From the NCBI GenBank assembly GCA_016840035.1, contig JAEOTC010000056.1, positions 1 through 19,177 of the forward strand: a stretch of 19,177 bases of DNA, written 5' to 3'. Source of the DNA: Candidatus Hodarchaeota archaeon. Its GTDB lineage: Archaea > Asgardarchaeota > Heimdallarchaeia > Hodarchaeales > Hodarchaeaceae. Below, piece after piece: positions 474 through 17,630 of this stretch. The notes beneath the pieces were generated by a model, which made no database searches, was not told where the DNA came from, and worked only from the letters and a program-made list of their open reading frames with translations. A program made the position numbers and the translations under genes. The first letter of the stretch is position 1. Each line of letters opens with the position of its first letter.

Positions 474-2210
474 TCATTCTTGCTTTGTTTTCCCCCTGTT
501 CCTCTTTCTTATCAGTACTCCAACAGCAATAACAGAGATAACCACACTGGCAAAACTTGCATTCCCATCAGTTGTAATTGTTGTTACCCCTTCTGAAGTA
601 GAAGATATGGTAGTGGTTATAGTAGTAGTGGTCGGTGGAAAAATAGTTTCCACACTACAATTGAATTGACTTACAAATACATCAGAATTTCCATTCCATG
701 AGTTATCTAGGGCGTTAGCCGTTACTGGCAGATTATAGGAACGAGTTGAGCCAATGATGACTGCTATATCATCTGAATTCAATACCAGATCGCCTGCATC
801 GTGTCCTTCAGTCCCGATAACCCCTGCATCCTCTGTACTGGTTCCTCCAAAATATGTGGAGTAGTTCACCTGCTCGAGATCAGGAGTCAATTTGCTAAGG
901 AAAAAGTCGGTTGATCCGTGTATTTCTGTCTGATAAGCATTCGGTGAGGTGGGAAAGGTAGGTTTGTCTGTATATCCTAAAACGTAAAGATTTCCGTATG
1001 AACCCATCTTCATTGTGCCAGGAACCCCTCCCCCTAAGAATGTGGAAGCTATTATGGTTGTCCCATCAGAGGAAATTTTAGTGACAAATGCATCGCTTCC
1101 CCCATTACTCTCCTTAAACACTCCTGTTGTTGTCGGGAAAGTGGAGGACCATGTCTTTCCAAAGCAATAAATTGTGTTGTTTTCATCGACTATGAAGTTA
1201 ACGAGATAATCCCAGTCATTTCCCCCTAGAAACGTTGAAAACAGTAGCGTAGTCCCATTCGTAGCGAATTTTGTAATGAATGCCTCTTGTGCTTGATAAG
1301 TTTTATCAAGAGCCGAGGAGGTTATAGGGTAATCGGGGGAATTTGTGTATCCACCCATGAGAATATTCTGTTGATTATCCAGGGCGAGAGTTAATGCATA
1401 ATCTTTTGCACTTCCTCCGAAATACGAGGAATACAGAAGTAATGACCCATTTGAGGATAATTTACTGATGAAGATATCAAATGTTCCCGAAAGCGTATTT
1501 TGATACGCATCTCCGCTTAGTGGAAAATCACTTGAGTTTGTATATCCTGTTATGTATATGGTATCGTTTTCATCGAGTATTAGCTGGTTATTTCCAATAA
1601 ATGCCTGGCTTTCCCTTGCTATTCCGCCCAAGAAAGTTGAAAAGAGAAGAGTGGATCCATTTGCAGCCAATTTACTTACATAGAGGTCTTGTCCCCCATT
1701 ATACGTTGTATCATAAGCGTCGGGTGTTACCGGAAAGTCACTGGATTGTGTAGTTCCAAATATTATAATATTGTCCTTACTATCAACAGCCATCTCCATT
1801 GTATGGAAGGTTACATTCCAGGGAGGTGTTCCTTGCCAGGTATCTAGCGCGCTTCCTCCTAGATAAGTTGAAAATATTAGTTCTGTCCCATCAGACGTCC
1901 ATTTACTTATGAAAATATCTAGATTACCATTATAAGTTGTATCATACGCACCTGGTGTAGTTGGAAAATCATCTGAAAAAGTTAAGCCTGCAATAATGAT
2001 ATTTCCCTGACTGTCATATTCGATACAATGTCCAAGATCATCCTCAGTACCCCCAAAATACGAGGAATAGAGTAAACTCTCTGTGTTTACTATGGAATTA
2101 GGAGAAAATGAAGGGGATTTTACAGATGATCTGTCTCCTAGTAGGATTATTGATACGGTTATTAAAATCAATATGCCACTTATCTGTTTTTTCTTGTTAT
2201 CTTCTTTCAT
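474..2210 (-). CDS. SBBP-repeat beta-propeller cell-surface protein with C-terminal Thr linker and TM anchor
   Basis: N-terminal signal/TM. About 7 repeats of the type STYLGG..D.....D..NI.I.G.T.S.DFP.T..AYD.TYNG..D.FISK, typical of SBBP repeats. C-terminal T-rich linker, ASF motif, hydrophobic helix and RKRNR tail. Confidence 0.85.
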   Translation of the reverse strand: MKEDNKKKQISGILILITVSIILLGDRSSVKSPSFSPNSIVNTESLLYSSYFGGTEDDLGHCIEYDSQGNIIIAGLTFSDDFPTTPGAYDTTYNGNLDIFISKWTSDGTELIFSTYLGGSALDTWQGTPPWNVTFHTMEMAVDSKDNIIIFGTTQSSDFPVTPDAYDTTYNGGQDLYVSKLAANGSTLLFSTFLGGIARESQAFIGNNQLILDENDTIYITGYTNSSDFPLSGDAYQNTLSGTFDIFISKLSSNGSLLLYSSYFGGSAKDYALTLALDNQQNILMGGYTNSPDYPITSSALDKTYQAQEAFITKFATNGTTLLFSTFLGGNDWDYLVNFIVDENNTIYCFGKTWSSTFPTTTGVFKESNGGSDAFVTKISSDGTTIIASTFLGGGVPGTMKMGSYGNLYVLGYTDKPTFPTSPNAYQTEIHGSTDFFLSKLTPDLEQVNYSTYFGGTSTEDAGVIGTEGHDAGDLVLNSDDIAVIIGSTRSYNLPVTANALDNSWNGNSDVFVSQFNCSVETIFPPTTTTITTTISSTSEGVTTITTDGNASFASVVISVIAVGVLIRKRNRGKTKQE

Positions 2211-3916: not shown

Positions 3917-4483
3917 TTATGGTTTCATTTTCCAAATCTTTAATGATTCATACATGAAAACCATGGTTCCAAATACGAGAACAAACAGAAAAACCCAGTT
4001 ACTTGGATCAAGGATATATCTATCTCCTCGTGTTAACAGAAAACCCAGAAATACAATTAGACAGAGAATAAACACCCCCAAATAGATTGTAAAACGAGGA
4101 ATCACGTGATATCCGAGACGAAAATAGAACCCATAGATTCCTGATTTGATTTCTTCTTTTACATAATACTTCTCATTTTCCTCATTTTTGGCTACAATTC
4201 CCACAGAAATCAAATTATTAATATGATACGAGACGAGGCCTGGAGAGGATAATTTCAATCCCTTTTGTATTTCCCTGATCCCTGCAAAACCTTCTGGATG
4301 AGTTAGAAGAAACCAATAAATGTTGAGTGTGGTTCCTTGAAGGAGTTTCTCTAGTTTTTCTTTAGGCGGGTCTGGGTGCATGGTTTCTCTCACGTATTTA
4401 AGAGAGTAGGATTTTGAGAGTAGGGGGATTTTTCGTTTTAAACGAGAGAGATTGATATTCTCTAATTCTTTAAAACGATCCAT
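3917..4483 (-). CDS. Membrane-tethered winged-HTH transcriptional regulator (wHTH + 2 TM), copy 1
   Basis: LQGTTLNIYWFLLTH...GIREIQKGLKLSSPGLVSYHINNLISVGIVAK...KY is a wHTH pattern, followed by two C-terminal hydrophobic helices. The start overlaps the SBP stop (TAATG). Paralogous to 9913..10437 and 17112..17630. Confidence 0.85.
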   Translation of the reverse strand: MDRFKELENINLSRLKRKIPLLSKSYSLKYVRETMHPDPPKEKLEKLLQGTTLNIYWFLLTHPEGFAGIREIQKGLKLSSPGLVSYHINNLISVGIVAKNEENEKYYVKEEIKSGIYGFYFRLGYHVIPRFTIYLGVFILCLIVFLGFLLTRGDRYILDPSNWVFLFVLVFGTMVFMYESLKIWKMKP

Positions 4484-6678
4484 TATTTTAGAATCCTCCC
4501 TCTAATATACTTTGCCTTCCTATAATTATAGATGACTATTGAAACCGCACAAACCACCAACCCACCAATCGCTATTGCGAAGAATGGGACCAATTTGTAC
4601 GTTTTGAGAAAATTTGGGATATTAAACTGGATTAAATTCCTCTTACCACTTAATTCCACTTCTAAATAGCGAAATGTCGAATTGCTAGCTTGAATTTTAA
4701 GCTCCTCCCATTCTCCCCTTTCCTCATTATAAAGAAAGAGAGCTAACTGATCATGAGGAATTTCATTGACTTCTTCAATATCATAATAGCATCTAAGCAG
4801 ATAGTTCTTATTTTCTTGATCACTTGTTGCTAATATGAACTTACCGTCTTCAATTTCAGAAGGTAGAAAGACCTTTAATTCCTTACTCATGGTTATATTC
4901 ACGTGATACTTCTGTTCCTGAAGAGGAGTTAGGACACAATCTGCCCATGGAAAATAAATGGGGTAGTCCGTAACCTCTATGTTATTATATTGGAACTTTT
5001 CAGGGTAAAGACTCTGTTTATGACTATTTGAAGCTTCTACTTGCTGTTGACTTAGTTTGAAGTTTCCTAATAGCTGATTATCTTGAGTGGAATAATTAAA
5101 GTAAATTTGTTCTATTGTATTCACGAATACAAATGGATTTAAGTCTTTGATTAGTGCATAAATATTCTTATTGAAAGTTAAATAGATATACGGGGCTTTT
5201 TGTTGAATTACTGGTTGAACTCGATAATAAAAATATTCTCGTTCTTGTCGTACGGGTGTTTTGGCTCCCTTTAATACTAATTCGTCAATAAGCGGTTCTT
5301 CAAATCCACCTGTATTAAAAGGGCTTGAAGAATGCAGATATAATCGAGTTAAGTCTGGATCATTGTACGAACTTGATCCAAAGAGAATAAGATCGTAGTC
5401 TCCCTCCCTCCAATATTCAGCCCAGTCGCTAGGGATGTTGGGTGGTGCCCAAATTCCTATTGCTTCTAAATATTCTTCAATAATCTCTGGGTGACGACTT
5501 TCGTCTCCTACTAAATTGAGAGCAAAGCGAAAGTTGTCTTTCCCACGTAGATAACCCGCCTTATCCAATAACTCATTTGCTAATGCCACATCAAACGGAT
5601 ACCCTGTCACCGACTGATTATAATATGGAACGTCTGGAGGGATTAAATTCGTCATTGGAATTGAAAAATCACTCCAGTTCATCTGATTTATGTATTCTTG
5701 CCTATCAATGGCATAATTAATGGCTAGTCGGACTCTGGGATCACTTAAATATTGATTATTGTGGTTAATATACATGAGTTCAAACCGAGTCATTTTTTCG
5801 CTAATATACACCTCCCAATTGATGCTATTTAACAACTGTTCCTCGATAGTGTTGTGCATAAAAACCATATCGACTGTTTGATCCCTAATCTCGTCAGCAA
5901 ATTCTTCCTGAGCAAGATAATGAATTTGTTCAAAAGGAGCCAATCCTTGATGGTAATTATTGAATCTAGTAAATGTAAAATTTTGAAAATTATCATTGTA
6001 AGTTGAGGAAGTTAATTCATATGGACCTGTGCCAATGGGATGTGAAATATTTGGTCCAATAAAGCTAGTTGGGGCTGCTATGTGCAGATATGCACACTCA
6101 TGAATAAAAGCAGCAAACGGGTCAGTTAAATGGACGGTAACTTGAAATTCGTTTTCTATTTCGACAAAATCAAAAGGTATTGTGTGAAAACTAATATATG
6201 GTGCTGGTTTGACATAGGCGGAATGAGTGGGATTAATCAGTCGATCATAATTCCATTTTACTGTACTCGCATTAAACTTTGACCCATCATGAAAAATAAT
6301 ATCATCCCGGAGATAAAATGTCCAGTGTTTACTGTCCTTGGATACGACCCATTGTTCAGCTAGCATAGGCTGTAATCCTCCAGAATAAGGATCATAATGC
6401 ACTAAAGCCTCATATACTAGTGAATTACGACGTAAATCAGCATTCCAACCTATTGCTATCGGATCAAAAAAAGGGTCATAAGGCCCGAGTATATATTTAG
6501 GTGTCATTACCCCAATTCGCAAAATGGAGGGAATTGAATCAACTGATTCTTGATTGAACAGAGGTATCTTTGACTTGGGTAAATCATTTGTCTCGAAATT
6601 ATCATAGGAGTTTCTGTTCGTAATCCATGAGGAAAATAGAATTAGGGACACGATTGTTACAATTAGCCTCATTTTCAA
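4483..6678 (-). CDS. Family-5 (peptide/nickel-type) solute-binding protein with an extra C-terminal beta-rich domain and single TM anchor; putative sensor 1
   Basis: SBP family-5 motifs: VYEALV, PMLAEQW, WTFYLRDDIIFHDGSKFNA, PIGTGPY, DPRVRLAINYAIDR, ANELLDKAGY. An extra domain of about 150 aa (LRCYYD...LALFLYNEERGEWEEL...YLEVEL) precedes the TM helix and basic tail. No permease or ATPase is adjacent. Confidence 0.85.
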   Translation of the reverse strand: MKMRLIVTIVSLILFSSWITNRNSYDNFETNDLPKSKIPLFNQESVDSIPSILRIGVMTPKYILGPYDPFFDPIAIGWNADLRRNSLVYEALVHYDPYSGGLQPMLAEQWVVSKDSKHWTFYLRDDIIFHDGSKFNASTVKWNYDRLINPTHSAYVKPAPYISFHTIPFDFVEIENEFQVTVHLTDPFAAFIHECAYLHIAAPTSFIGPNISHPIGTGPYELTSSTYNDNFQNFTFTRFNNYHQGLAPFEQIHYLAQEEFADEIRDQTVDMVFMHNTIEEQLLNSINWEVYISEKMTRFELMYINHNNQYLSDPRVRLAINYAIDRQEYINQMNWSDFSIPMTNLIPPDVPYYNQSVTGYPFDVALANELLDKAGYLRGKDNFRFALNLVGDESRHPEIIEEYLEAIGIWAPPNIPSDWAEYWREGDYDLILFGSSSYNDPDLTRLYLHSSSPFNTGGFEEPLIDELVLKGAKTPVRQEREYFYYRVQPVIQQKAPYIYLTFNKNIYALIKDLNPFVFVNTIEQIYFNYSTQDNQLLGNFKLSQQQVEASNSHKQSLYPEKFQYNNIEVTDYPIYFPWADCVLTPLQEQKYHVNITMSKELKVFLPSEIEDGKFILATSDQENKNYLLRCYYDIEEVNEIPHDQLALFLYNEERGEWEELKIQASNSTFRYLEVELSGKRNLIQFNIPNFLKTYKLVPFFAIAIGGLVVCAVSIVIYNYRKAKYIRGRILK

Positions 6679-6822
6679 GTTTCCAACTCCTCGAGATTTA
6701 TCTAGAATGGTTTATTATATTCAATCTTAGCTTTAATTCATTTTTAAACATGATAGAAATAATATGTTGGTTTATTGATAGCTTTGGAACGATTAAACTT
6801 ACTTATTCTCCCCAGAAAAGCA

Positions 6823-6867
6823 TATTTAAACCTTTCTAACCGTTCTAGATGTTCTAGATGTTAGAAC
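6823..6867 (-). promoter_or_regulatory. BRE-TATA promoter plus upstream GTTCT-N7-AGAAC operator for the SBP1-wHTH1 operon
   Basis: Minus strand reads AGAAAggTTTAAATA (TATA 6830-6823). The box GTTCT-AGATGTT-AGAAC is at 6851-6867, with its edge 21 bp from the TATA. Confidence 0.65.
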
Positions 6868-6972
6868 ATGCATTTTTCATTTCTTTTACAATCTCTATAA
6901 TCACATCCCTCTACCCCACGATCATCTCCAAGCTTCCATTTATTTTTTTTAAAAAGAACAAGCTCCAGTTTT

Positions 6973-7073
6973 TGAATAGCCTTTGCTCTTGCGATTTGTA
7001 TACAAAAAGAGCTTATTGTGAATGAGATTCTAAGCCGATTTTTTTCCTTCTGACGACAGTCTTCTGTAATTTC
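6973..7073. repeat. Dispersed direct repeat of about 100 bp, copy 2
   Basis: Homologous to 341-439 in the same orientation. Confidence 0.75.
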
Positions 7074-7178
7074 TTGTACTCTTGAAATCCTTGGATTCCT
7101 CCCATCCTTTCATTGTTTTTAGTTTTTCTGCCCTTCCTAATTGATCTTCTTCCCTTTCTTAGGGGTTTCATATCTGCC

Positions 7179-7222
7179 GTACAAATATTTGTACAACTAT
7201 TTTCCGAGGAAATGTTTAAATA
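7179..7222 (+). promoter_or_regulatory. Perfect palindrome GTACA-AATATT-TGTAC plus BRE-TATA for 7294..8202
   Basis: Box at 7179-7194, then GAGGAAAtgTTTAAATA with the TATA starting at 7215, 21 bp after the box edge. Confidence 0.7.
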
Positions 7223-7293
7223 ACCGTTTTTTCACCTTTTCTGCTTAGTTATCCAAGAATATTAACCCAACTTGGTTAAAGAGGTTTTTAAAA

Positions 7294-8202
7294 TTGATTG
7301 ATAACGGAATAAAGTTTTTTCGTGTATATTGCATCCTTCTTTTGGGTGTCATCTTTCTGTTTCCCCTTACGCAGGTGTCTGCTGAGGTGGTTTGGGTAGA
7401 GGATTGGGAAAACGGGTCTTCTGACTGGATTTTCCACAGTTATAACTATAGTGATGTTACTGGTTCCTGGTCTTTTCAACCTGATGCCATTGCTACACCT
7501 TCTGTGGCCAATGGAGTCTTTCAGACTAATTCTCCGAGTGATTTCTTTGGCGATTATTGGAGTGGCGCGATTCGAAATAGCACGACAGCGTATGGTTCCT
7601 GGAGTTTCGATGTGATTATTGGGTCAGGAGTCGCACATGAATCCTATCTTATTTTCTTCTTTGCTGTTGCTGGAATGCCTGATGATCTTACTGGATTATC
7701 TTTAGGTGATAACAATATTACAGGGTATTTCTTAGTAATTCAGTCAGGAGATAAAGGAGCTTTTGGTAATCCACTCATTCAGTTAGCGACCCTTAATTAC
7801 GTTTTGGCTGACTATCATCCTGCTACCCCGATTGAAGGAACACTTCATTTCCATATTACTCGGAATACCACAGGTTACTTTGAAGTCTTTTTTGATCCTA
7901 CGAATGACTCCTCGCCTCCTATTCTTACTGGTACTAATACTACTTTTACTACTTGTTCTAAATTTGCCTTTGGTTCCTGGGTTGGGGATTCGCAGATTGA
8001 TAATTTTTTTGTCTGGGATGAAGTCGTTCCCCCTCTAACTGATCTCCCTACAACTACTACGACTACTCCGATCACTACGACCACAGACAACCCAGAGTCG
8101 ACGACAACTACGACTGCTGCTGGGGGGCCTGGCTTTGAGCTACAAGTGTTAGTTCTTGGACTGTCCGCTCTATTCCTCTATCTTCGCAAACGAAGACCCT
8201 AG
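7294..8202 (+). CDS. Secreted surface protein, putative ConA/LamG-like beta-sandwich with Thr linker and PGF-CTERM-like anchor
   Basis: Signal peptide FPLTQVSA|EVVW. Family motifs AYGSWSFD, HITR...G.F.V.F and DS.IDN. Many N-x-S/T sequons. GGPGFE-TM-RKRRP C-terminus. The fold assignment is inference. Confidence 0.85.
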   Translation: MIDNGIKFFRVYCILLLGVIFLFPLTQVSAEVVWVEDWENGSSDWIFHSYNYSDVTGSWSFQPDAIATPSVANGVFQTNSPSDFFGDYWSGAIRNSTTAYGSWSFDVIIGSGVAHESYLIFFFAVAGMPDDLTGLSLGDNNITGYFLVIQSGDKGAFGNPLIQLATLNYVLADYHPATPIEGTLHFHITRNTTGYFEVFFDPTNDSSPPILTGTNTTFTTCSKFAFGSWVGDSQIDNFFVWDEVVPPLTDLPTTTTTTPITTTTDNPESTTTTTAAGGPGFELQVLVLGLSALFLYLRKRRP

Positions 8203-8224
8203 GTCTTCCCACTCCCATTTTTTT
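8192..8224 (+). terminator. Stop-overlapping hairpin plus T tract
   Basis: GAAGACC-CTA-GGTCTTC followed by a C/T tract. Confidence 0.5.
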
Positions 8225-8269
8225 GGATGATTGGGGATGAAATTTTACTCGTCTACTCTAATGAACAGG

Positions 8270-8289
8270 GTGTACAGTCCGCTGTACAC
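8270..8289. promoter_or_regulatory. Palindromic box GTACA-GTCCGC-TGTAC upstream of SBP2
   Basis: GTGTACAG-TCCG-CTGTACAC, core 8272-8287, with the same half-sites and N6 spacer as 7179 and 14750. The TATA box here is unclear (possibly ATATAGA at 8321). Confidence 0.6.
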
Positions 8290-8347
8290 CAAAACACCCA
8301 AAAACTGATCCAAGAACACGATATAGAGTCTCATTTACGAATAAACC

Positions 8348-9916
8348 ATGGTTTACAGCATGTTTCGGGAATTAAAAACATCTTCAAGGTGTATCCAGAG
8401 TTATTTTCTCTTTTTCTTGTTTTTTACTCTAGTTCTTGTTCCTGCCGTGAGGGGTCTCTCCTTAAATTCTAGGGGTGGTGCTGAGTCTTCCAGTATTTCA
8501 TTTGTTGTGATTGAACCTCTTGGTTCTCATCCAGCTTTTCAACAGCTCATTACTCAATTTAACCAGCACCCTGATTTTGACTTTACTGTTGAGGTTGAGT
8601 TACTTGAGGGAAGTAACAAGGATTGGTATGACCAATTAGTTCACCGATTTTTAGCTCAAGACAGTTCTTTTGATCTTGTCTCGACTGACATTATCTGGAT
8701 TCCTGATTTTGCCTTTGAAGAGTTTTTAACCCCTTTGGATGATATTCTGCCTCCTAAGGAGCAGAATTACTTTCTTACTCCCCCCATTGAAGCTTCCATT
8801 TACGATGGTCACATCTATGCGGTTCCTTGGTTTCATGCTTCTGGTCTTTTCTTTTATCGTACTGACATTCTCGAATATGCGGCTTCTATTGGTTTAATCC
8901 CTGCTAATCGTCCTCCCTCGACTTGGGATGAGTTATATGATTGGACACTTATCATGCTTGCCAACCAAACCCTTGTTGATCAGTTTAAGAGTTCTGATGG
9001 AGTTTTAGAGGGATTTATCTGGCAAGCTTCTTCTGGAGAAGATTTGATGTGTAATTTTTTGGAATTTCTTGGTGGGACGGGTATCTTCTCCTTTCTTTCT
9101 GAAGAACAATCTTTTGCTCTATTAGATTCTCCTCCAATCCAAGAAGTTCTTTCTTTCATGAAAAGCCTCATCACTAGCGGTATTTCTCCAGAGGAGGTTC
9201 TTACTTATTGGTCTGGTTCCAGTGGTGATATCTGGTTAGCAGGGAATGCGATTTTTCATCGCAATTGGCCATATTATTATTCATTCAGTTATGATTCTCC
9301 GAATTTACTGAACCTTACAACTTCGGAACCAGTTTTTGCTGTGACTACTATGCCTCATAAAGTGGGCACCTCTTCTCCTCGTACTTCCACCCTTGGTGGT
9401 TGGCAGCTTGGTCTTAATCGCTATTCCTTGTATCCTGAAAAGACCAAACAATTTATGACCTGGCTTACGTCATCCGACCAGCAGAAGGTTTTTCTTCTTT
9501 CTGGCGGTTTTCTTCCTTCGCGTCTTTCTCTTTATTCTGATCTGGATATTGCTTCTAGTGATTATGCTTATATTCAGGATTTTTTACCTATCTTTCAAAC
9601 CGCCATTTCGCGTCCCCGTCCGACTCATCCTCGCTATTCCGAAATGAGTGTGGTCCTTCAATCTCAAATCCATCAATTCCTTTCTGGGACCACTTCGTAT
9701 GAGCAATTCGCTCTCACCAGTAATGGGGAAATAGATCTTATCCTGAAGCAGTTTGAACTGGATTTATTGGCCAAATTGGAGGAATTGAGTCGCAAGACCT
9801 TTCATCTTCTTCCTCTCATCGCCTTAATCTCTGTTGGGGTAGGCCTTCCGGTTATCAGGGTAATCGTTCAGAATTTTCGCACTTATCGATCATTAAGGAG
9901 GCAACTCAAGCTATGA
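8348..9916 (+). CDS. Sugar-type (trehalose/maltose-binding-like) solute-binding protein with C-terminal TM anchor; putative sensor 2
   Basis: Motifs FDLVSTDIIWIPDFA, YDGHIYAVPWF..GLFFYRTDIL, PPSTWDEL, IFHRNWPY, STLGGWQLGLN and RPTHPRYSEMS are typical of cluster-B/D sugar SBPs. N-terminal signal and C-terminal TM. ATGA overlap with the next gene. The start may be ATG 8360. Confidence 0.85.
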   Translation: MVYSMFRELKTSSRCIQSYFLFFLFFTLVLVPAVRGLSLNSRGGAESSSISFVVIEPLGSHPAFQQLITQFNQHPDFDFTVEVELLEGSNKDWYDQLVHRFLAQDSSFDLVSTDIIWIPDFAFEEFLTPLDDILPPKEQNYFLTPPIEASIYDGHIYAVPWFHASGLFFYRTDILEYAASIGLIPANRPPSTWDELYDWTLIMLANQTLVDQFKSSDGVLEGFIWQASSGEDLMCNFLEFLGGTGIFSFLSEEQSFALLDSPPIQEVLSFMKSLITSGISPEEVLTYWSGSSGDIWLAGNAIFHRNWPYYYSFSYDSPNLLNLTTSEPVFAVTTMPHKVGTSSPRTSTLGGWQLGLNRYSLYPEKTKQFMTWLTSSDQQKVFLLSGGFLPSRLSLYSDLDIASSDYAYIQDFLPIFQTAISRPRPTHPRYSEMSVVLQSQIHQFLSGTTSYEQFALTSNGEIDLILKQFELDLLAKLEELSRKTFHLLPLIALISVGVGLPVIRVIVQNFRTYRSLRRQLKL

Positions 9917-10437
9917 AATCTATTTATACTCTTCTTCTTGAGCTCTTTGACTATTTTATTCCTTCGAGTCATACTCCGTTGGATCGCCCTATGAATGAAG
10001 ATTTAATTCGGGGGAAATCTCTCCAAATCTACTGGCACTTGCTGACCGCGGGTCCTAAAGGAGTTCGTGAAATTCAACGAGATCTTAATCTCACTTCTCC
10101 CTCTTCTGTCTCCTTTCAACTTGATCGATTGATGAAAGCGGGTATTGTTTCGAAAGATGAGAGTACTGACAAATATTTTGTGTCTGAAGAGGTTAAAACT
10201 GGTATCTTGGGTTTCTATGTCCGTTTCGGTTATCGCATGATTCCCCGTCTTACCCTGTTTCTTCTCTTTCAGTTGACTGGTATTGTCGTTTTTCTCATTC
10301 TTTTCCTTCTTGAGGGAGATCAATTTGCTTTAAATCCCTTTAACCTTCTTGCTTTCATCTATTTAATTCTTAGTAGTCTGTGGTTAATGTATGAGTCTAC
10401 TAAAATCAATAAACTAAAACCTAAAGAACTAAAATGA
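9913..10437 (+). CDS. Membrane-tethered winged-HTH transcriptional regulator (wHTH + 2 TM), copy 2
   Basis: IRGKSLQIYWHLLT..GVREIQRDLNLTSPSSVSFQLDRLMKAGIVSK..KY, linker GILGFYVRFGYRMIPR, then 2 TM. 4-nt overlap with SBP2. Confidence 0.85.
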   Translation: MKSIYTLLLELFDYFIPSSHTPLDRPMNEDLIRGKSLQIYWHLLTAGPKGVREIQRDLNLTSPSSVSFQLDRLMKAGIVSKDESTDKYFVSEEVKTGILGFYVRFGYRMIPRLTLFLLFQLTGIVVFLILFLLEGDQFALNPFNLLAFIYLILSSLWLMYESTKINKLKPKELK

Positions 10438-10476
10438 TAGAATAAACATAATTAAATGAAATGAGAGTATTACAAG

Positions 10477-11349
10477 ATGTTTGAGAATTTATTACTTAAC
10501 TGTCGTCTTCAGACCCTTCTTTTTTTGGGTATGATGCTTTTGTTTCCCCTCACGCAGGTATCTGCTGAGGTGGTTTGGGAAGAGGATTTTAATTCTGGAA
10601 TCTCAGAGAAATTGACATTCTTCGCATGGACCAGTGATAATGGCATTTTTCGTACAAATACTACCGCGCAACCCACTGTCGAAAATGCTGCTCTTCAAAT
10701 GCCTAATAATCGTGTTGCGAGTACTTGGAGTGGTGCTCAGCGGAACACGACTTTAGCTTATGGTTCCTGGAGTTTTGATTATACTGTAAAAGAAGGTGAA
10801 GATCATACTTCGTGTGATACGATTTTTTTCGTCAGTAATTTTCCATGGGATCTTGATGGACGTCCACTTCTTCCTAGCAACTTGAATGCATACTATATTG
10901 CGATTAAATCGGGGTCTACTGATAATTGCTGGCCGGATGAACCGGATCATGGATTAAACTTCGGACGAATATATCAAGGAAATGCTGTTAACTTAGTAAA
11001 ATATGTGTTTCCTGCTGACCTTGTGGGATCCTACAACATAGATATTTTAAGAAAACCGAATGGAGAATTTAATATCTATTGGGACTCTGAATTAATCATT
11101 AACAAAACTGACATTCTTGTTACATCAGCTGAAGTGTTTGTAGTTGGTTCTTGGACTGGAGATTCTACTTTTGACAACTTTGTTGTTGAAGAGTTTACCG
11201 ATACAACTTCAGATGGTTTACCAACTGATTCAGATAGTTCAACGAGTGCAGATGATCCATCGACTACTGATTCAAGCTCAGATTTTAATGTGGACTTATT
11301 ATTCCTAGCTCTCATTGCGGTTATGGTAGTTACCAAGAAACGTAAATAG
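10477..11349 (+). CDS. Secreted surface protein, divergent paralog of 7294..8202
   Basis: FPLTQVSAEVVWEEDF, AYGSWSFD, GSWTGDSTFDN. Acidic S/T linker, SDF motif, TM and KKRK tail. Confidence 0.85.
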   Translation: MFENLLLNCRLQTLLFLGMMLLFPLTQVSAEVVWEEDFNSGISEKLTFFAWTSDNGIFRTNTTAQPTVENAALQMPNNRVASTWSGAQRNTTLAYGSWSFDYTVKEGEDHTSCDTIFFVSNFPWDLDGRPLLPSNLNAYYIAIKSGSTDNCWPDEPDHGLNFGRIYQGNAVNLVKYVFPADLVGSYNIDILRKPNGEFNIYWDSELIINKTDILVTSAEVFVVGSWTGDSTFDNFVVEEFTDTTSDGLPTDSDSSTSADDPSTTDSSSDFNVDLLFLALIAVMVVTKKRK

Positions 11350-11357
11350 TTAAGCTT

Positions 11358-11404
11358 GAAGGAGTAACTTTGTAAATGGAATATTACTCCTTCGTCCTTT
11401 TTTT
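11358..11404 (+). terminator. Hairpin plus T tract; distant variant of the GAAAGAGT..ACTTCTTTC repeat
   Basis: GAAGGAGTAA-N16-TTACTCCTTC (11358-11393) followed by T7, just after the stop codon. Confidence 0.55.
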
Positions 11405-11574
11405 ATCTTGTTTTCTCATCAGGCACTTAAATGAGCAAGTATACACTCAACCTGAGCTGTTTAATGAGATTAGTTAATTTTCGTTGTTTCCTTGATTTTT
11501 TACACATCATTCTCTATTTAGAGAATGCTATCGCTCTTTAAGTCCCTGAGTTTCCTTCATACATTTCGTAAATT

Positions 11575-12462
11575 TTGAGGTTACTGAACATGTCTAACAA
11601 AGTACTTACTAACCTTCGCCTACCTTTCGTTCTGATTTTAGGTATCATGGTATTGTTTCCCCTCACGCAGGTCTCTGCCGAGGTGGTTTGGGAAGAGGAC
11701 TGGGAAAAACCCCCTTTTGATGAATGGATAATTCAAGCGTATTCTTATAGTGGTGATACTGGTTTTCAACCCGATGCTGCTGCCAATCCCCCCGTTGTTG
11801 CTGGTGTATTTGAAACCAATGCTCCTTCCGATATTTTTGGTGATTATTGGAGTGGTGCAGTCCGTAATAGTTCTGTGGCGTATGGTTCTTGGAGTTTTGA
11901 CTGGATAGTTGGTTCTGGGTCGGTTCATGAATCATATGTCAATGTCTTCTTCATTTTACCCGAGTACCAAAATAATCTAACAGGAAGAGATATGAGTGGT
12001 AATTATTCAGGGTATATGCTGAATCTTCAATCAGGTGTGAAAGGTCCTCATCCTCATAACTCGATTTATCTATCACGTTTTGATGGAGGAATAATTGGCA
12101 TGACAGCTTTTGATTCTGCTATCGAAGGATCTCATCACATTGAAGTGACTCGGTTCGAAGATGGAGAGTTCAATGTTTACTTCGACCATAATTCTACTCC
12201 AATCATTACTGGAATTGATACTACACACACGAACTCTACTAAATTTGCCTTTGGTGCGTGGATTGGCGATTCAGGTATAGATAATATTGTTGTTGCAGAT
12301 CTGACTGAAACAACGACTACTACAACTTCTACGACTACTACCGATGATACTACTACTGATTCTCCTACAACAACTGAGACTGGAAGTCCAAGCTTTGAAT
12401 TTCAGGTGATAGTACTTGGAGTGGCGTTCCTTTTCATCTTTTCCCGCAAGCGAAGACTCTAG
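11575..12462 (+). CDS. Secreted surface protein, close paralog of 7294..8202 (probable start ATG 11590)
   Basis: FPLTQVSAEVVWEEDWE, SDIFGDYWSGAVRNSSVAYGSWSFD, KFAFGAWIGDSGIDN. Thr linker and GSPSFE-TM-RKRRL C-terminus. Confidence 0.85.
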   Translation: MRLLNMSNKVLTNLRLPFVLILGIMVLFPLTQVSAEVVWEEDWEKPPFDEWIIQAYSYSGDTGFQPDAAANPPVVAGVFETNAPSDIFGDYWSGAVRNSSVAYGSWSFDWIVGSGSVHESYVNVFFILPEYQNNLTGRDMSGNYSGYMLNLQSGVKGPHPHNSIYLSRFDGGIIGMTAFDSAIEGSHHIEVTRFEDGEFNVYFDHNSTPIITGIDTTHTNSTKFAFGAWIGDSGIDNIVVADLTETTTTTTSTTTTDDTTTDSPTTTETGSPSFEFQVIVLGVAFLFIFSRKRRL

Positions 12463-12490
12463 GTCTTCTTTTTTACCTTTTTTTCCTTCC
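12452..12490 (+). terminator. Stop-overlapping hairpin plus T tracts
   Basis: GAAGAC-TCTAG-GTCTTC followed by long T runs. Confidence 0.55.
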
Positions 12491-12520
12491 TTATGGTTAT
12501 TATCCATTTTCGTGTAGTTA

Positions 12521-12559
12521 GAAAGAGTGACGCATTCCTGAGGGGGCGTTACTTCTTTC
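12521..12559. repeat. Intergenic hairpin repeat, copy A
   Basis: GAAAGAGTGACGC-ATTCCTGAGGGG-GCGTTACTTCTTTC, homologous to 17643-17680 and 18839-18878. Confidence 0.65.
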
Positions 12560-12837
12560 TTTCCTTCTGATTCAGTTTCTTGCCAATCGATTTTTTTCTT
12601 CAACTGGGGAGTATTACTCTCAATGGTTATGGTTTTCTCATCTCGCAAGAAGTGGGATTGCTGGTCCTAACAACTTATTTCATCAGTTTGTTTGCATTTG
12701 CATTTTATAAATTTAAATTTAAGAAACAGAAGGAGACATACCGTTGATGAATCTAAGAAATAAAATTCTAATTTCTTCTTTGTCCTATTTTGTTTCCACA
12801 TTGTCTGAGAAGTATCGTTCTTTGAGGTTTTAGGTCA

Positions 12838-13926
12838 TTATATTTTCCGTCTTTTCCGCGAGGAGATTATTAGTATACTAAGCACTAGTGGTACACTCAT
12901 CATTTCGAATCCTGGTATTCCACTTCCAGGTATAACGATTGTCAAGATCATTGTATCTAATACCGTGGTGGCATTTTTCAGTTGAATACTGATATCATAT
13001 GTTCCTGACTTAACCGATGCCTCTGTTCGAATTTTCAATGGTATTTCGTCTGTTTCATCCTTGAAAATATTCTTGATCAAGGACGAACCAAATGGTTCTA
13101 CTGTGATTCCACTTGGTTGAGTTCCGATGACTACAGTTCCATATCCTGTGGCTTCTCCTTCATTTTTTACCGTTATTGTGACGGTTGCTATTTCTTCTTT
13201 CCCTACTTCTTTGAGCATGCTTCTCTCTGTAAACTGTAGATTGGCTCGTTCTAGGGATGGTGGTTTGATTATTACCTCATTATTTACAGTAATGTTATCT
13301 AACCCGTGTCCTCCTTGTGAATCAAATCCAAAATAGTTTCCTACTGTATATTCAGTATCCATTGCTTCTATTATCAAAGTTCCATCCACGTACACATTAA
13401 AATGGCCATTTAGATCTCTTGTTATATCTATGTACAAATATTCAGGCAGTTTTCCAGTATATCCCCATACTCCCAATACTTTTGACGGAAATCCTTCTCG
13501 ACTTCCTAATATTAAGCTACTTGGGGTTACCATCCAACTTGAATCTGGAATTAATGTTAGATAATACCCTTTTTCTTCCCCAAGGTTTCCAAATGCTTCT
13601 GTACAGAAGTAAACGTACATATGTTCTCCGCTTATTAGTCCAGTTTGATTTATGTATACATCAAAGCTCCATGTGCCGTATGCAATATTACTGTCATGTT
13701 TTAGTCTGTGGTGATCTGTTTTTTCTCCTGCCGCAATTAACAATCCTGTTGTAGCGGAATAATTTCCGTCTATTATGGTCCATCCATCGTAATTCCCGTC
13801 CTCGAAATCATCACTCCAGATTTCTGTAGCAATACTTGGAGATGCTTGCAGAACGATTAAAATTAGGAAAATAAAACTTCCAGAAGTTAAATTTTTAGAT
13901 ATTTTTTCTTTTCTCATCTGATTCAT
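12838..13926 (-). CDS. Secreted surface protein: distant member of the same ConA/LamG-like family plus a C-terminal Ig-like domain and PGF-CTERM-like anchor
   Basis: EIWSDDFEDG, AYGTWSFD, IDITRDLNGHFNVYVDG and LDNITV match the family motifs. An Ig-like segment follows (VTITVKNEG...PSGITV...SGTYDISI), then IPGFE-TM-RKRRKI. GGTGA SD upstream. Confidence 0.85.
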   Translation of the reverse strand: MNQMRKEKISKNLTSGSFIFLILIVLQASPSIATEIWSDDFEDGNYDGWTIIDGNYSATTGLLIAAGEKTDHHRLKHDSNIAYGTWSFDVYINQTGLISGEHMYVYFCTEAFGNLGEEKGYYLTLIPDSSWMVTPSSLILGSREGFPSKVLGVWGYTGKLPEYLYIDITRDLNGHFNVYVDGTLIIEAMDTEYTVGNYFGFDSQGGHGLDNITVNNEVIIKPPSLERANLQFTERSMLKEVGKEEIATVTITVKNEGEATGYGTVVIGTQPSGITVEPFGSSLIKNIFKDETDEIPLKIRTEASVKSGTYDISIQLKNATTVLDTMILTIVIPGSGIPGFEMMSVPLVLSILIISSRKRRKI

Positions 13927-14096
13927 CTTTCACCCACCTAATCTGAGACCATGCTCATAGCGTTTTCCCCTATATTAACTTATAGTTCTATCTGTCTTCT
14001 CACCAAATTGGATAATTAACTCAAGAAAACACACATGACCGTATTAATAAAAGAAAATGAACTCCTTCCCTCATATTTAGGAATTTGTTGTGGCTT

Positions 14097-14285
14097 CTAC
14101 TGTTTTTTTCGCTTTCTCCGCTTTCTACTGAAGATTCCAACTCCGAAGACGATAATAAGTAGTTCTACAAAGGCAGTACTATCATCAGTTATGTTCGGTG
14201 ATGTTTCTGTAATTCTAGTTGTTGTTTTAGTCGTTGTGGTAGTTGTTATGGTAGTTGGTGGAGTAGTGGTAGTTGTCTCATTCAC
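14097..14285 (-). pseudogene. Orphan C-terminal fragment of a surface protein (Thr linker, TAF motif, TM, basic tail)
   Basis: Encodes only TTTTTPPTT...DDSTAFVELLIIVFGVGIFSRKRRKRKKQ. No signal peptide or globular domain. The upstream frame is closed by a stop about 25 codons earlier, with no ATG. Confidence 0.55.
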
Positions 14286-14360
14286 CTCTTTCTTAGCCGT
14301 ACTGAGTATTAAAAAGACAATATTTCGATAAAGTAGTGATGAGTCTCCCTCCTTTCCATT

Positions 14361-14483
14361 TTATTTCTTCTTTTTCACTTTTGGTCCGAGTGGGTACGAA
14401 TAAACGAGTCGATTATCGATTTCCTCTTTGGTTTTTTTCTTTTTTTTCTCGTCCTTGTTCTTTGGTTTTTGGTCTTCACTCAT
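14361..14483 (-). CDS. Small Lys-rich protein, copy 1 (40 aa: MSEDQKPKNKDEKKKKKTKEEIDNRLVYSYPLGPKVKKKK)
   Basis: Below the ORF-track cutoff. ATG preceded by a GTGAT SD-like motif. The paralog at 18566..18685 has an identical 15-aa core encoded with only synonymous differences. Confidence 0.75.
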   Translation of the reverse strand: MSEDQKPKNKDEKKKKKTKEEIDNRLVYSYPLGPKVKKKK

Positions 14484-14749
14484 GTTAATCACAGACTCTT
14501 CCTAGACTTTCTTGAGTTGTGTCTTGTATGTTTATTTATTAATTCAATGCTAAGGTTTGCAAAGTCATTTCTTTTAGACGTGTCTAACACTATTAAACTT
14601 TGAGGAACTAAAATTTTACTTCTTCTTTTTTCCAATTAAAATATATAGTCGTGTCTAATTCTTATCGGCCTGCCTATTATTTATTCAAGGAGGATTGAAG
14701 TATTTGCTTTAGTGTAAAAAGATCAAGTACTAAAACTCTGTTATTCGTT

Positions 14750-14813
14750 GTACAAACTTTTGTACAGTGAGTACAAGGTTTTATACTTCCCCTACCGTGG
14801 AAACCTTTAAGTA
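14750..14813 (+). promoter_or_regulatory. Tandem GTACA-N6-T[GA]TAC boxes plus BRE-TATA for SBP3-wHTH3
   Basis: GTACA-AACTTT-TGTAC at 14750-14765 and GTACA-AGGTTT-TATAC at 14771-14786 (21-bp period). GGAAAccTTTAAGTA has its TATA at 14806, 20 bp after the proximal box. Confidence 0.65.
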
Positions 14814-14889
14814 AGGGGAAATTCCTATCTATTTGAAAGGTTTCACTCGAATTAATTAGAAAAAATCCTGTTAGAGAGCTGTTAAACGT

Positions 14890-17055
14890 ATGAAACTCCG
14901 ATATTATCATGTTTTCTTACTAATCAGCATTTTTATCCTTACAGGTATCTTTATTCCTGTTTCAACCCATACAGTATCTTCATTCTCCTCAATTGTACAT
15001 ACTGATATTGTAAATACCCCTACTAATGGAGCAGAGGATTCTTCCTTACGCATCCTCTCCTATGGTTATCGTAATAGTGACCCTTTCCAAGAATTTAACG
15101 ATCTTGCCTCTTATTCTTATCTTATTACACTTGTATTTGATTCTCTTGTTCATTATTCTTTTGAAACGAATGAAATAATCCCCTCTCTTGCCAGATCTTG
15201 GCTTGTGAGTTTAGATAGCCGTCACTGGACTTTCTTCCTTCGGCAAGATGTTTTATTTCATGATGGTTCTGAATTTAACGCTTCAGCTGTCAAATTTTCT
15301 TATGATCGACTTATTGATCCTTCCCATCCTGCTTATATTGATCCGACACACAGAACACTTCTCTTTCAAGGCCCTCTTGAATCCGTGACTGTAGTAGACA
15401 CGTATATTGTGTCTTTTCACTTTTCTGAACCCTATGCTTCATTTTTGTATACAGACGCAGCCACAATGAGTATATATTCTCCTAGAAGTTTTATAGGTTC
15501 GAATATTTCTACTCCTATTGGTACAGGTCCTTATGCATATGCGTTTCATCAATCCAGAGAAAATGATACATTGCTCCACCTTACAAGAAATCCAGATTAT
15601 CATTTAGGCTACCCTCCTTTTGAGAACGTTTCCTATCGGACTTTTAATGAGACAGAACAGAGTTGGTTTTCTTATGAAGAGGCAATACACAACCGAGAAG
15701 GAGACTTGGCAACTTACCCCATTTCTAGTCTTCCAGATACGGATGAGTATTGGGATCTTTCTCTTTCTTTTCATGGTATTGAGGTAGGTTACTTTAACCA
15801 TTCTAATCCCTATTTGTCCAATTCTTTAGTGCGTTCAGCCATCAACTATGGCATCGATAAGGTTGATTTCTGCACTACTTTTCCCAATAGTACTATTCGT
15901 TACTCTAGATCTTCTCTTAAGAGCATCATCCATTCTGATATCGATTTTCACGATTCAACTATTCCAGGATATCCCTTTGATCCGCAATACGCAAACTTCT
16001 TACTTGATGCAGCAGGTTATCCACGAAACACTGATGGATATCGTTTCAGTCTTCAGCTCTCGGGAGACGATTATAGATGGGATAAACTGATTTATATTCA
16101 GGATCAGCTCCGAGATATTGGAATCAATTCGACAATAGATATTTTGGACCATAATGATTTCTCAACGGGCCTGTTTCCTTTTGATCTTTATATAGTGGGG
16201 TGGGGTGGACTGATGGATCCAAGTTATGTCTGGTGGTTTCTTCATTCAGATGGTGATATCAATGTTGGGGGTTTTCATAATTCTACTATTGATCAACTCG
16301 TTCTAAATGGGCAATATACTCCTGTCGTACAAGAACGTGAGTATTACTACAAGAAACTCCAGTGGTTAGTACAAGATGCTGTACCTTACTTATTACTGAG
16401 TGAGGGATATAAACCCTACATAAGGGCTACTTCTGTTTCATCATTGGTTAAAATGAATATTATTGGGAAATTTGCATTTAATTTTCCAACTGTCCAAGAT
16501 CCTCTATTTTCTCTCTCCGAAATTCCTCTTTCTGTCAACCCTCTCTATTGTCCACAAGCAGACATTGTGATCTCTCCCGAATCAGTTATTCACGATTCTT
16601 ATGTTAATCTCGATTTTTCAACTGATTCATCTCAGTTCTTCCCAGATCAAATAGGGGCGGGAAAATTTTACCAGCTTTCGAATGATGATCAGGAACCAGT
16701 GGAGTATTCTCTCCGTTTCTATTATGATGAAAGCGATTTTAATGAGAGTATTGATCCTGAGTCGCTAGCTCTCTTTGTTTGGAACCCAGTTCAACAATCT
16801 TGGGATGAACTAGAGTTAATTTCTGTAGATAATGATTTTCGCTATCTTGAGGTTCAGTTAACTCTTTCTACTGATCCTCTCATTCTTGCTTTTGGCGTAA
16901 GAAAGGTGTTTTTGGAGGAAGTTATTCGCTCCTTTAAACTTCTTTTTCCTTATCTTATATTACTGGGGGGAATTATTTCATTTGGTGCTGCAATTATCTT
17001 ACTTAATAGAATGTTCTTGAAAAATCTTCAGGAGGAGTTTTTATCACAATTATAA
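14890..17055 (+). CDS. Family-5 solute-binding protein with an extra C-terminal domain and single TM anchor; putative sensor 3 (paralog of 4483..6678)
   Basis: VFDSLVHY, PSLARSW, WTFFLRQDVLFHDGSEFNA, PIGTGPY, VRSAINYGIDK, ANFLLDAAGY and TPVVQEREYYY. Same extra domain as SBP1 (LRFYYDE...LALFVWNP...WDEL...FRYLEVQL), followed by a TM helix. Confidence 0.85.
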   Translation: MKLRYYHVFLLISIFILTGIFIPVSTHTVSSFSSIVHTDIVNTPTNGAEDSSLRILSYGYRNSDPFQEFNDLASYSYLITLVFDSLVHYSFETNEIIPSLARSWLVSLDSRHWTFFLRQDVLFHDGSEFNASAVKFSYDRLIDPSHPAYIDPTHRTLLFQGPLESVTVVDTYIVSFHFSEPYASFLYTDAATMSIYSPRSFIGSNISTPIGTGPYAYAFHQSRENDTLLHLTRNPDYHLGYPPFENVSYRTFNETEQSWFSYEEAIHNREGDLATYPISSLPDTDEYWDLSLSFHGIEVGYFNHSNPYLSNSLVRSAINYGIDKVDFCTTFPNSTIRYSRSSLKSIIHSDIDFHDSTIPGYPFDPQYANFLLDAAGYPRNTDGYRFSLQLSGDDYRWDKLIYIQDQLRDIGINSTIDILDHNDFSTGLFPFDLYIVGWGGLMDPSYVWWFLHSDGDINVGGFHNSTIDQLVLNGQYTPVVQEREYYYKKLQWLVQDAVPYLLLSEGYKPYIRATSVSSLVKMNIIGKFAFNFPTVQDPLFSLSEIPLSVNPLYCPQADIVISPESVIHDSYVNLDFSTDSSQFFPDQIGAGKFYQLSNDDQEPVEYSLRFYYDESDFNESIDPESLALFVWNPVQQSWDELELISVDNDFRYLEVQLTLSTDPLILAFGVRKVFLEEVIRSFKLLFPYLILLGGIISFGAAIILLNRMFLKNLQEEFLSQL

Positions 17056-17111: not shown

Positions 17112-17630
17112 ATGACTGAACGAAAATCGCTTGTTTCTCGGTTTTTTTCTACCCTTCGTCTTCGTATTAAATCGATTGGTATATCCCAGACTCCCATCGA
17201 CAAAGAAATTTTACAGGGAAAAACTATTCAAGTTTACTGGTTCCTTCTTACTCATGAAGATGCTAGCATTCGTGAAATTCAGCGTGCTTTACATTATGCG
17301 TCACCAGGGACTGTTACTTATCAACTTTCTAAGTTAGAAACAGCTGGTGTTGTGACTAAAGATCTTGAAAATGATAAGTATCGGATCAAATCAGAAATTA
17401 AATCAGGAATCTTGGGTTTTTATGTCCGGATTGGTTATCGAATGATTCCTCGGTTTTCTTTATACCTTATTTTGTTCCTTTTTGGGATTATTTGCTTCGC
17501 TTTTGTGGCAATTGATCGTGGTGACACCTTTATTTCGGATCCTTTCAATTGGATCATCCTATTTATTTTGATCTCGGGTATTTTTGCCTTTATCTTTGAA
17601 TCCATCCGTATTTGGAGAATGAGACCATAG
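17112..17630 (+). CDS. Membrane-tethered winged-HTH transcriptional regulator (wHTH + 2 TM), copy 3
   Basis: LQGKTIQVYWFLLTH..SIREIQRALHYASPGTVTYQLSKLETAGVVTK..KY, linker EIKSGILGFYVRIGYRMIPRF, then 2 TM. Lies 56 bp after SBP3. Confidence 0.85.
   Translation: MTERKSLVSRFFSTLRLRIKSIGISQTPIDKEILQGKTIQVYWFLLTHEDASIREIQRALHYASPGTVTYQLSKLETAGVVTKDLENDKYRIKSEIKSGILGFYVRIGYRMIPRFSLYLILFLFGIICFAFVAIDRGDTFISDPFNWIILFILISGIFAFIFESIRIWRMRP

Follow-up and report, generated by a model that had tools for sequence, protein, structure and literature searches.

Little is understood of transmembrane signalling in archaea, and that of Asgard archaea has hardly been explored. The stretch of DNA that is considered here, and that is called the window in the following, comprises positions 1 to 19,177 of contig JAEOTC010000056.1 (C282) from an 87%-complete genome of a Candidatus Hodarchaeota archaeon (assembly GCA_016840035.1; 36% GC). 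It encodes three solute-binding proteins (SBPs) that share a C-terminal module, composed of a transmembrane (TM) segment and a conserved tail, and each of the SBP genes is followed by a gene for a winged helix-turn-helix protein with two TM segments (wHTH-2TM). The module is real, specific, portable and strictly linked to one clade of these regulators. We read each of the three loci as a two-gene signalling cassette in which the module would dock the sensor on the TM hairpin of the regulator, and attach a probability of roughly 0.6 to this reading.

Several described systems have elements in common with such a cassette. In Vibrio cholerae, the periplasmic solute-binding-type protein CBP controls ChiS, a regulator that is embedded in the membrane and binds its promoter from there; CBP stays bound to ChiS both with and without ligand (bioRxiv 10.1101/2020.01.10.902320). 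However, CBP is a soluble protein whose contact is with a large periplasmic domain of ChiS, and ChiS is a hybrid histidine kinase that adds an enzymatic layer, whereas the Asgard cassette has a membrane-anchored sensor, a regulator without an outer domain, and no kinase. Control of a membrane transcription factor by a partner through intramembrane and periplasmic contacts is also described for the pairs LysP-CadC, ToxS-ToxR and TcpH-TcpP (PMC6320335). Pairs of the LysP-CadC type have a transporter or small membrane protein as partner instead of a family of single-pass sensors with a common portable anchor, and CadC and ToxR combine an OmpR-type wHTH with one TM segment and a periplasmic sensor domain. 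A Pfam search of the Asgard regulators found no OmpR-type match, and their two TM segments and outer loop of about 10 residues also set them apart from ToxR and CadC. Compared by architecture, the archaeal one-component regulators ArnR and ArnR1 of Sulfolobus acidocaldarius are similar in having an N-terminal HTH and two C-terminal TM segments, but they carry cytoplasmic HAMP-like and sensing domains in between, and no partner sensor is described for them (PMC6396743); the Asgard regulators have only a short linker helix between the wHTH and TM1. In its mode of action the cassette is nearest to CBP-ChiS, LysP-CadC and ArnR; it belongs to none of these systems, and it lacks the domains by which ChiS, CadC and ArnR are defined.

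Two further comparisons concern the sensor. SgrR-type proteins also employ the family-5 binding fold for transcriptional control, and NCBIfam gives weak SgrR matches for two of the SBPs (SBP1 and SBP3), but the SgrR type is a single cytoplasmic chain of a wHTH and an SBP_bac_5 domain, whereas the Asgard binding domain is extracellular and situated on a separate chain. The module itself recalls the PGF-CTERM/archaeosortase signals of secreted archaeal proteins, in which a C-terminal motif is combined with a TM segment and basic residues. It differs from these by the lack of a PGF motif before the TM segment and of a short basic end, by a conserved tail of 13–16 residues, by an invariant Asn and by its linkage to a regulator; PGF-type ends are found on neighbouring proteins and on transporter SBPs. 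The cassette can be described as a variant of the theme of a membrane-bound transcription factor with a co-sensor, so far in two Asgard lineages. No description of such a sensor–regulator pair was found in the searchable literature, of which the coverage excludes most subscription journals, so this is no proof of novelty.

The sensors, modules and regulators of the window are the following (aa, amino acids; nt, nucleotides; HMM, hidden Markov model).

SBP1, 4483..6678, minus strand: 731-aa SBP_bac_5 sensor with signal peptide, extra C-terminal domain, TM segment and tail.
Module of SBP1, 4486..4605, minus strand: KTYKLVP...N718...RILK; 61.2 bits against the family-5 tail HMM.
Regulator 1 (P0006), 3917..4483, minus strand: 188-aa wHTH-2TM protein; 1-nt overlap with the end of SBP1.
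SBP2, 8348..9916, plus strand: 522-aa SBP_bac_1/8 sensor.
Module of SBP2, 9794..9913, plus strand: KTFHLLP...N509...QLKL; the TM segment holds a unique Arg.
Regulator 2 (P0007), 9913..10437, plus strand: 174-aa wHTH-2TM protein; 4-nt overlap with SBP2.
SBP3, 14890..17055, plus strand: 721-aa SBP_bac_5 sensor.
Module of SBP3, 16927..17052, plus strand: RSFKLLFP...N706...FLSQL; 59.9 bits against the family-5 tail HMM.
Regulator 3 (P0008), 17112..17630, plus strand: 172-aa wHTH-2TM protein; 56-nt spacer after SBP3.

All three SBPs have a signal-like hydrophobic N-terminal segment and a single C-terminal TM segment. SBP1 (207.9 bits, E 3e-61) and SBP3 (181 bits, E 5e-53) match SBP_bac_5 (PF00496; gathering cut-off 32.4), whereas SBP2 matches SBP_bac_1 (PF01547) with 80.4 bits and SBP_bac_8 with 58.5 bits (E 3e-22; Pfam cut-offs 26 and 27) and belongs to another SBP family, as was held in a first-pass annotation made from the letters of this DNA. 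That annotation had aligned the three C-termini without gaps. Translation of the genes reproduced its quoted termini exactly, with [KR][ST][FY]xL (in which [KR] is position 1), Gly15 and Asn27 in all three, Pro at position 7 in SBP1 and SBP2 and at position 8 in SBP3, and 13, 13 and 15 residues beyond the Asn in SBP1, SBP2 and SBP3, respectively; its range for the SBP1 tail (4483-4605) takes in the stop codon. The neighbouring surface proteins differ, as it had stated, and end in a linker rich in Thr, with a PGF-like motif and a short anchor of the sequence RKRR.

The significance of the shared tail was evaluated with an HMM of 26 family-5 tails from the genome and its genus, from which SBP2 was excluded, and the last 60 residues of all 3926 open reading frames (ORFs) of at least 100 aa in the genome served as target. 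Four family-5 module proteins ranked at the top with 56–62 bits, SBP2 came next with 24.9 bits (E 2.5e-6), and the best remaining C-terminus of the genome reached 11.3 bits (E 0.04); a separate scoring of the SBP2 module gave 51.2 bits. The 27 closest family-1 relatives of SBP2, which are Asgard proteins, the closest of them sugar-type SBPs with 42–48% identity to it, have C-termini that score at most 3.7 bits with the family-5 tail HMM, and most of them end in a plain TM segment followed by RKKRK. The family-1 homology of SBP2 stops at residue 466, after which there is a 15-aa connector and then the module. As the relatives carry ordinary anchors, SBP2 alone has exchanged its anchor within its own family, and the likeness of its tail is beyond chance. 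A profile of 43 tails was further compared to 1.84 billion representative proteins (E ≤0.001), which yielded 42 matches, every one at the extreme C-terminus. Apart from SBP2, which was the only family-1 case, the matches comprised SBP5, beta-helix and SBBP proteins as well as short fragments. Thus, the profile does not detect generic TM anchors; neither this test nor that of Asn27, which is invariant, refutes the proposal of the first-pass annotation.

The genome holds exactly five copies of the module, three in the window, one on contig C284 and one on contig C28. In a module-first search of 400 Asgard genomes with the tail alignment, it was found in 39, with carriers in 12 of the 21 genomes of the same genus and in 23 of the 135 genomes of a second family (f20). 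Three weak matches lay outside these two groups, and the two that were retrieved were false positives. The strong matches in family f20 are SBP_bac_5 proteins, next to which there is a second set of right-handed beta-helix/NosD and SBBP beta-propeller proteins, encoded in frames of about 400–670 codons and with C-termini of the form ...LNYFPIILIIS...IYKNRKRFRKPQEDLEFL. Each gene of this second set overlaps by 4 nt with a gene for a 187-aa wHTH-2TM protein. The earlier idea of a portable module is borne out by its presence on four unrelated ectodomain classes: SBP_bac_5, SBP_bac_1, beta-helix/NosD and SBBP propeller.

The linkage to a regulator gene is equally consistent. A wHTH-2TM gene lies downstream of all five module copies in the genome, and among the module-first matches above about 23 bits for which downstream sequence was available (n = 51), it follows in 49, which supports the link. 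For the genus, including the genome of the window, 30 of 30 module matches coincide with matches of an independent regulator search, and in family f20 the regulator follows in 19 of 21 judged loci. The two genes overlap or are at most 7 nt apart in 42 of the 49 pairs. One other protein (P0041, 284 aa, JGI), which bears the name of a parallel beta-helix repeat protein, has a match to P0008 along 93% of its length. It could result from a gene call that fused two genes, or be a genuine sensor–regulator fusion.

An AlphaFold2 model of P0008, with a predicted local distance difference test score (pLDDT) of 80.5 overall and 96 in the hairpin, has an N-terminal helix, a wHTH at residues 37–92, a helix at residues 100–136 that includes TM1, a short loop helix, and TM2 at residues 144–170. 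The model leaves only a linker helix of about 20 residues between the wing (residue 92) and TM1, and it has no domain outside the membrane, where there is just the short loop of about 10 residues, so that the regulator by itself could not sense extracellular ligands. In Pfam, P0007 matches HTH_5 with 23.1 bits (cut-off 22) and LexA_DNA_bind with 24.9 bits (cut-off 23.7), and the wHTH matches of P0006 and P0008 are just under the cut-off; NCBIfam has no family for the regulators. The top Foldseek matches of the model are CadC/ArsR, MarR and HxlR proteins, and the comparison to the PDB gave generic wHTH proteins only, with no match to the whole architecture. The regulators are predicted to be ArsR/MarR-like winged-helix proteins with a two-helix TM hairpin.

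Conservation was examined in 43 tails of the four ectodomain classes and in their 43 partner regulators. The module has an outer juxtamembrane motif [ST][FY]x[FYL]xP, a TM segment of fixed length, an Asn, and a basic tail of 13–16 residues. Ser or Thr occupies position 2 in 40 of the 43 tails, Pro occupies position 7 in 38 and the next position in 4 more, and there is not a single insertion or deletion between the Pro and the Asn. The spacing from Ser/Thr to Asn is 26 residues, with SBP2 in identical register. The first-pass annotation had singled out Gly15 and Asn27, of which Asn27 is conserved in all tails (43/43); Gly15, present in 9 of 43, was rejected as a conserved residue, so that this part of the proposal does not generalise. 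In the regulators, invariant pairs are G137-D138 in the outer loop (GDxF), E163-S164 at the cytoplasmic end of TM2 and P113-R114 at the start of TM1. The GDxF loop is absent from a sister subfamily of regulators without module partners. Three anecdotal co-variations were also noted. Arg503 of SBP2 (9857-9859) is the only charged residue inside a TM segment among the 43 tails, and TM1 of its partner P0007 has Gln at a site where beta-helix-paired regulators have Asn and others Phe, Ile or Tyr. The beta-helix-paired regulators have Cys or Ser in place of the TM2 Gly, and a Gly is shifted in their tails.

Docking of the sensor on the regulator is supported indirectly: the two genes are strictly linked and overlap, the regulator is devoid of a sensor domain, and the GDxF loop is restricted to module-paired regulators. 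In the mechanism that we propose, the first gene would encode a secreted, single-pass type I sensor with an interchangeable ectodomain, and the second a minimal membrane-bound transcription factor, with a cytoplasmic winged helix and a TM hairpin but no sensor domain of its own. The module helix would pack on the hairpin to give a three-helix bundle, in which the outer [ST][FY]x[FYL]xP motif would face the GDxF loop of the regulator, and the Asn would be situated at the cytoplasmic face, at the same depth as the Glu-Ser pair at the end of TM2. Binding of a ligand in the ectodomain could then alter this packing and hence DNA binding by the regulator, without involvement of a kinase. In this scheme, the contact between the two proteins, the direction in which control runs, the ligands and the regulon are all inferred.

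The evolutionary relationships also favour the reading as a cassette. In a quick maximum-likelihood tree of 64 regulators (IQ-TREE, with SH-aLRT branch support), the module-paired regulators form a single clade (support 90), in which those with beta-helix or propeller partners (support 100) fall inside the clade of SBP5-paired regulators of family f20 (support 99), with the partners of propellers and beta-helices interleaved. The tails of the f20 beta-helix proteins have 34% identity to f20 SBP5 tails versus 20% to SBP5 tails of the window's own genus; tail similarity tracks lineage, not ectodomain class. It follows from this nesting that one ectodomain was exchanged for another while tail and regulator stayed together as a conserved unit. 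The simplest reading of these sequence data is that the TM segment and tail would have been inherited together with the regulator as one unit, with the ectodomain replaced several times upstream of the juxtamembrane motif.

Upstream of the three sensor genes, palindromes are present that can be considered as candidate operators.

TGTACA-N6-TGTACA palindrome, 8271..8288, 60–77 nt upstream of SBP2: candidate operator.
TGTACA-N6-TGTACA palindrome, 14749..14766, 124–141 nt upstream of SBP3: candidate operator.
ATGTTCTA-N5-TAGAACAT palindrome, 6849..6869, 171–191 nt upstream of SBP1: candidate operator with different spacing.

The sequence TGTACA-N6-TGTACA occurs 12 times in the retrieved loci versus about 0.05 expected, as estimated from base composition, and with up to two mismatches it is found in 16 of 44 upstream regions versus 1 of 44 coding controls. 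The SBP3-type palindrome is at the same distance in loci L031 and L051, and L052 has a second exact site 216 nt upstream. More generally, palindromes of the type TGT[AT]C-N8-G[AT]ACA precede the sensor genes of both lineages, mostly at a distance of 105–141 nt. Such palindromes probably serve as operators for wHTH-2TM proteins and fit autoregulation by a dimeric wHTH, with the regulator probably acting on sites upstream of its own operon. Loci with TGTACA-N6-TGTACA or related palindromes include L031, L051, L052, L075 and L085, and within the window a half-site (7190-7195) precedes a lectin-like gene at 7294.

If the operon is autoregulated, as it appears to be, linkage could also arise without any contact between the two proteins. 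The module might be a sorting, insertion or processing signal, for example for a hitherto unrecognized sortase-like enzyme, an intramembrane protease or a factor that targets to a membrane domain, and the regulator would only control the operon and be co-expressed. We regard this as unlikely, although it is the best of the alternatives: the order of motif, TM segment and basic residues resembles that of tripartite C-terminal sorting signals, and the Pro-containing motif is placed where such signals are cut. However, the 13–16 residue tail is conserved beyond the basic cluster, in contrast to the PGF-type signals of the same genome, and a module without a regulator was seen in none of the five copies here and in only 2 of 51 loci elsewhere. 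Further points against a sorting signal are that the regulator itself lacks a sensor domain and that its outer-face GDxF loop is invariant only in module-paired regulators. The missing PGF motif and the conserved tail fit the proposal of the first-pass annotation that the module would not be removed by archaeosortase. A search of the 87%-complete genome for the archaeosortase family PF09721 gave no match, but it was of low sensitivity, as the control matched only M. jannaschii.

Archaeal SBPs that are anchored by a C-terminal TM segment are known, and SBPs with a dual role in transport and signalling exist in bacteria. With these precedents, and as the SBP ectodomains are intact family members, the module-bearing SBPs could still be transport proteins that serve ABC importers encoded elsewhere, with the TM segment as an alternative anchor and a regulator that reads occupancy indirectly. 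This explanation is somewhat less likely again. The genome has about 15 SBP_bac_5 genes, of which five encode proteins with Thr-rich PGF-type anchors and are located 2–6 kb from BPD_transp_1 permease genes, whereas no BPD_transp_1 gene was found on the contigs with module SBPs (C282, C28 and C284, of 19, 147 and 15 kb). Moreover, the beta-helix and propeller proteins that carry the module are not transporter components.

That the likeness of SBP2 is a composition artefact of hydrophobic anchors, with the tail shared by descent among family-5 paralogues only, was already disfavoured and is very improbable, since the low complexity of TM segments and the 19–32% identity of the SBP2 tail to the others are outweighed by its score relative to all other C-termini of the genome and to its family-1 relatives, the identical register and Ser/Thr-to-Asn spacing, the paired-clade regulator that overlaps it by 4 nt, and the two further ectodomain classes that carry the module.

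Several observations weigh against a docked sensor–regulator pair, which nevertheless is the reading that we prefer. Docking is plausible, but the case for it, and for signalling, is built on indirect signs, namely linkage, gene overlap and weak co-variation. In a partial Mantel test, tail similarity follows the regulator TM region given the wHTH (r 0.52, p 5e-4), a correlation that, like the three anecdotal co-variations, is confounded by shared descent. The TM2 Glu also occurs in regulator subfamilies without module partners and is thus not specific to the proposed interaction. DNA binding by the regulators is suggested by weak wHTH matches near the cut-off together with the palindromes. P0007, the partner of SBP2, branches off first in the paired clade and has a long branch, so that the family-1 fusion, a singleton in the databases, may be old and divergent. 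Finally, the two loci without an intact regulator both concern beta-helix proteins: L081, with a weak module (24 bits) and a short tail, has no regulator downstream, and in L085 the sensor is followed only by an 86-aa regulator remnant. These two may be decaying cassettes. Regarding electrostatics, the charges of the sensor tail and of the N-terminal extension of the regulator correlate with rho -0.44 for the whole and -0.10 for the last 25 residues, values that are uncorrected for relatedness. A complex prediction with SBP3 tail and regulator alignments scored 0.10 relative to a mark of 0.32, which gives no verdict and is used neither way.

If docking is true, the cassette would provide a compact, kinase-free path from an extracellular ligand to a promoter, and the anchor would act as a standard connector, put to use repeatedly in evolution with SBPs, beta-helices and propellers. 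Experimental handles are offered by the Asn of the sensor, by the GDxF loop and Glu-Ser pair of the regulator, and by the palindromic candidate operator, and the arrangement may be a natural scaffold for the construction of chimeric sensors. The annotation 'ABC transporter substrate-binding protein' is, on the reading as a signalling cassette, wrong for a defined subset of proteins in these genomes. A broader proposal can be envisaged, to which we give slightly less than even odds: the cassettes would represent a not yet described, kinase-free Asgard system, in which swappable ectodomains on a docking module would join a minimal wHTH-2TM protein in a three-helix bundle, with DNA bound from the membrane, and of which the sister subfamily would be a mirror image, together forming a general modular class of one-pass sensors with membrane transcription factors.

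The members of this sister subfamily of wHTH-2TM proteins (145–155 aa, without GDxF loop; loci L042-L050 and L061-L070) are preceded by type-II membrane proteins with an N-terminal module, M-x-[IL]-N-G-x-[ILF]-x-K-x-G followed by a TM segment. This N-terminal module is common to DUF3160 proteins of about 730 aa and to an unrelated protein of about 235 aa. In the genome of the window, the motif matches exactly one ORF (C16:16989-17684), which is followed by a regulator fragment.

The sensor cassettes of the window are interleaved with genes for a family of secreted proteins without Pfam match (3-281, 7294-8202, 10477-11349, 11575-12462 and 12838-13926), whose signal peptides resemble each other (FPLTQVSAEVVWEEDW) and whose C-terminal anchors are Thr-rich and PGF-like. 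This local family may be part of the regulon. The window further encodes an SBBP beta-propeller protein (474-2210, minus strand) with an ordinary Thr-rich linker and basic anchor, which is of the same ectodomain class as module carriers in family f20.

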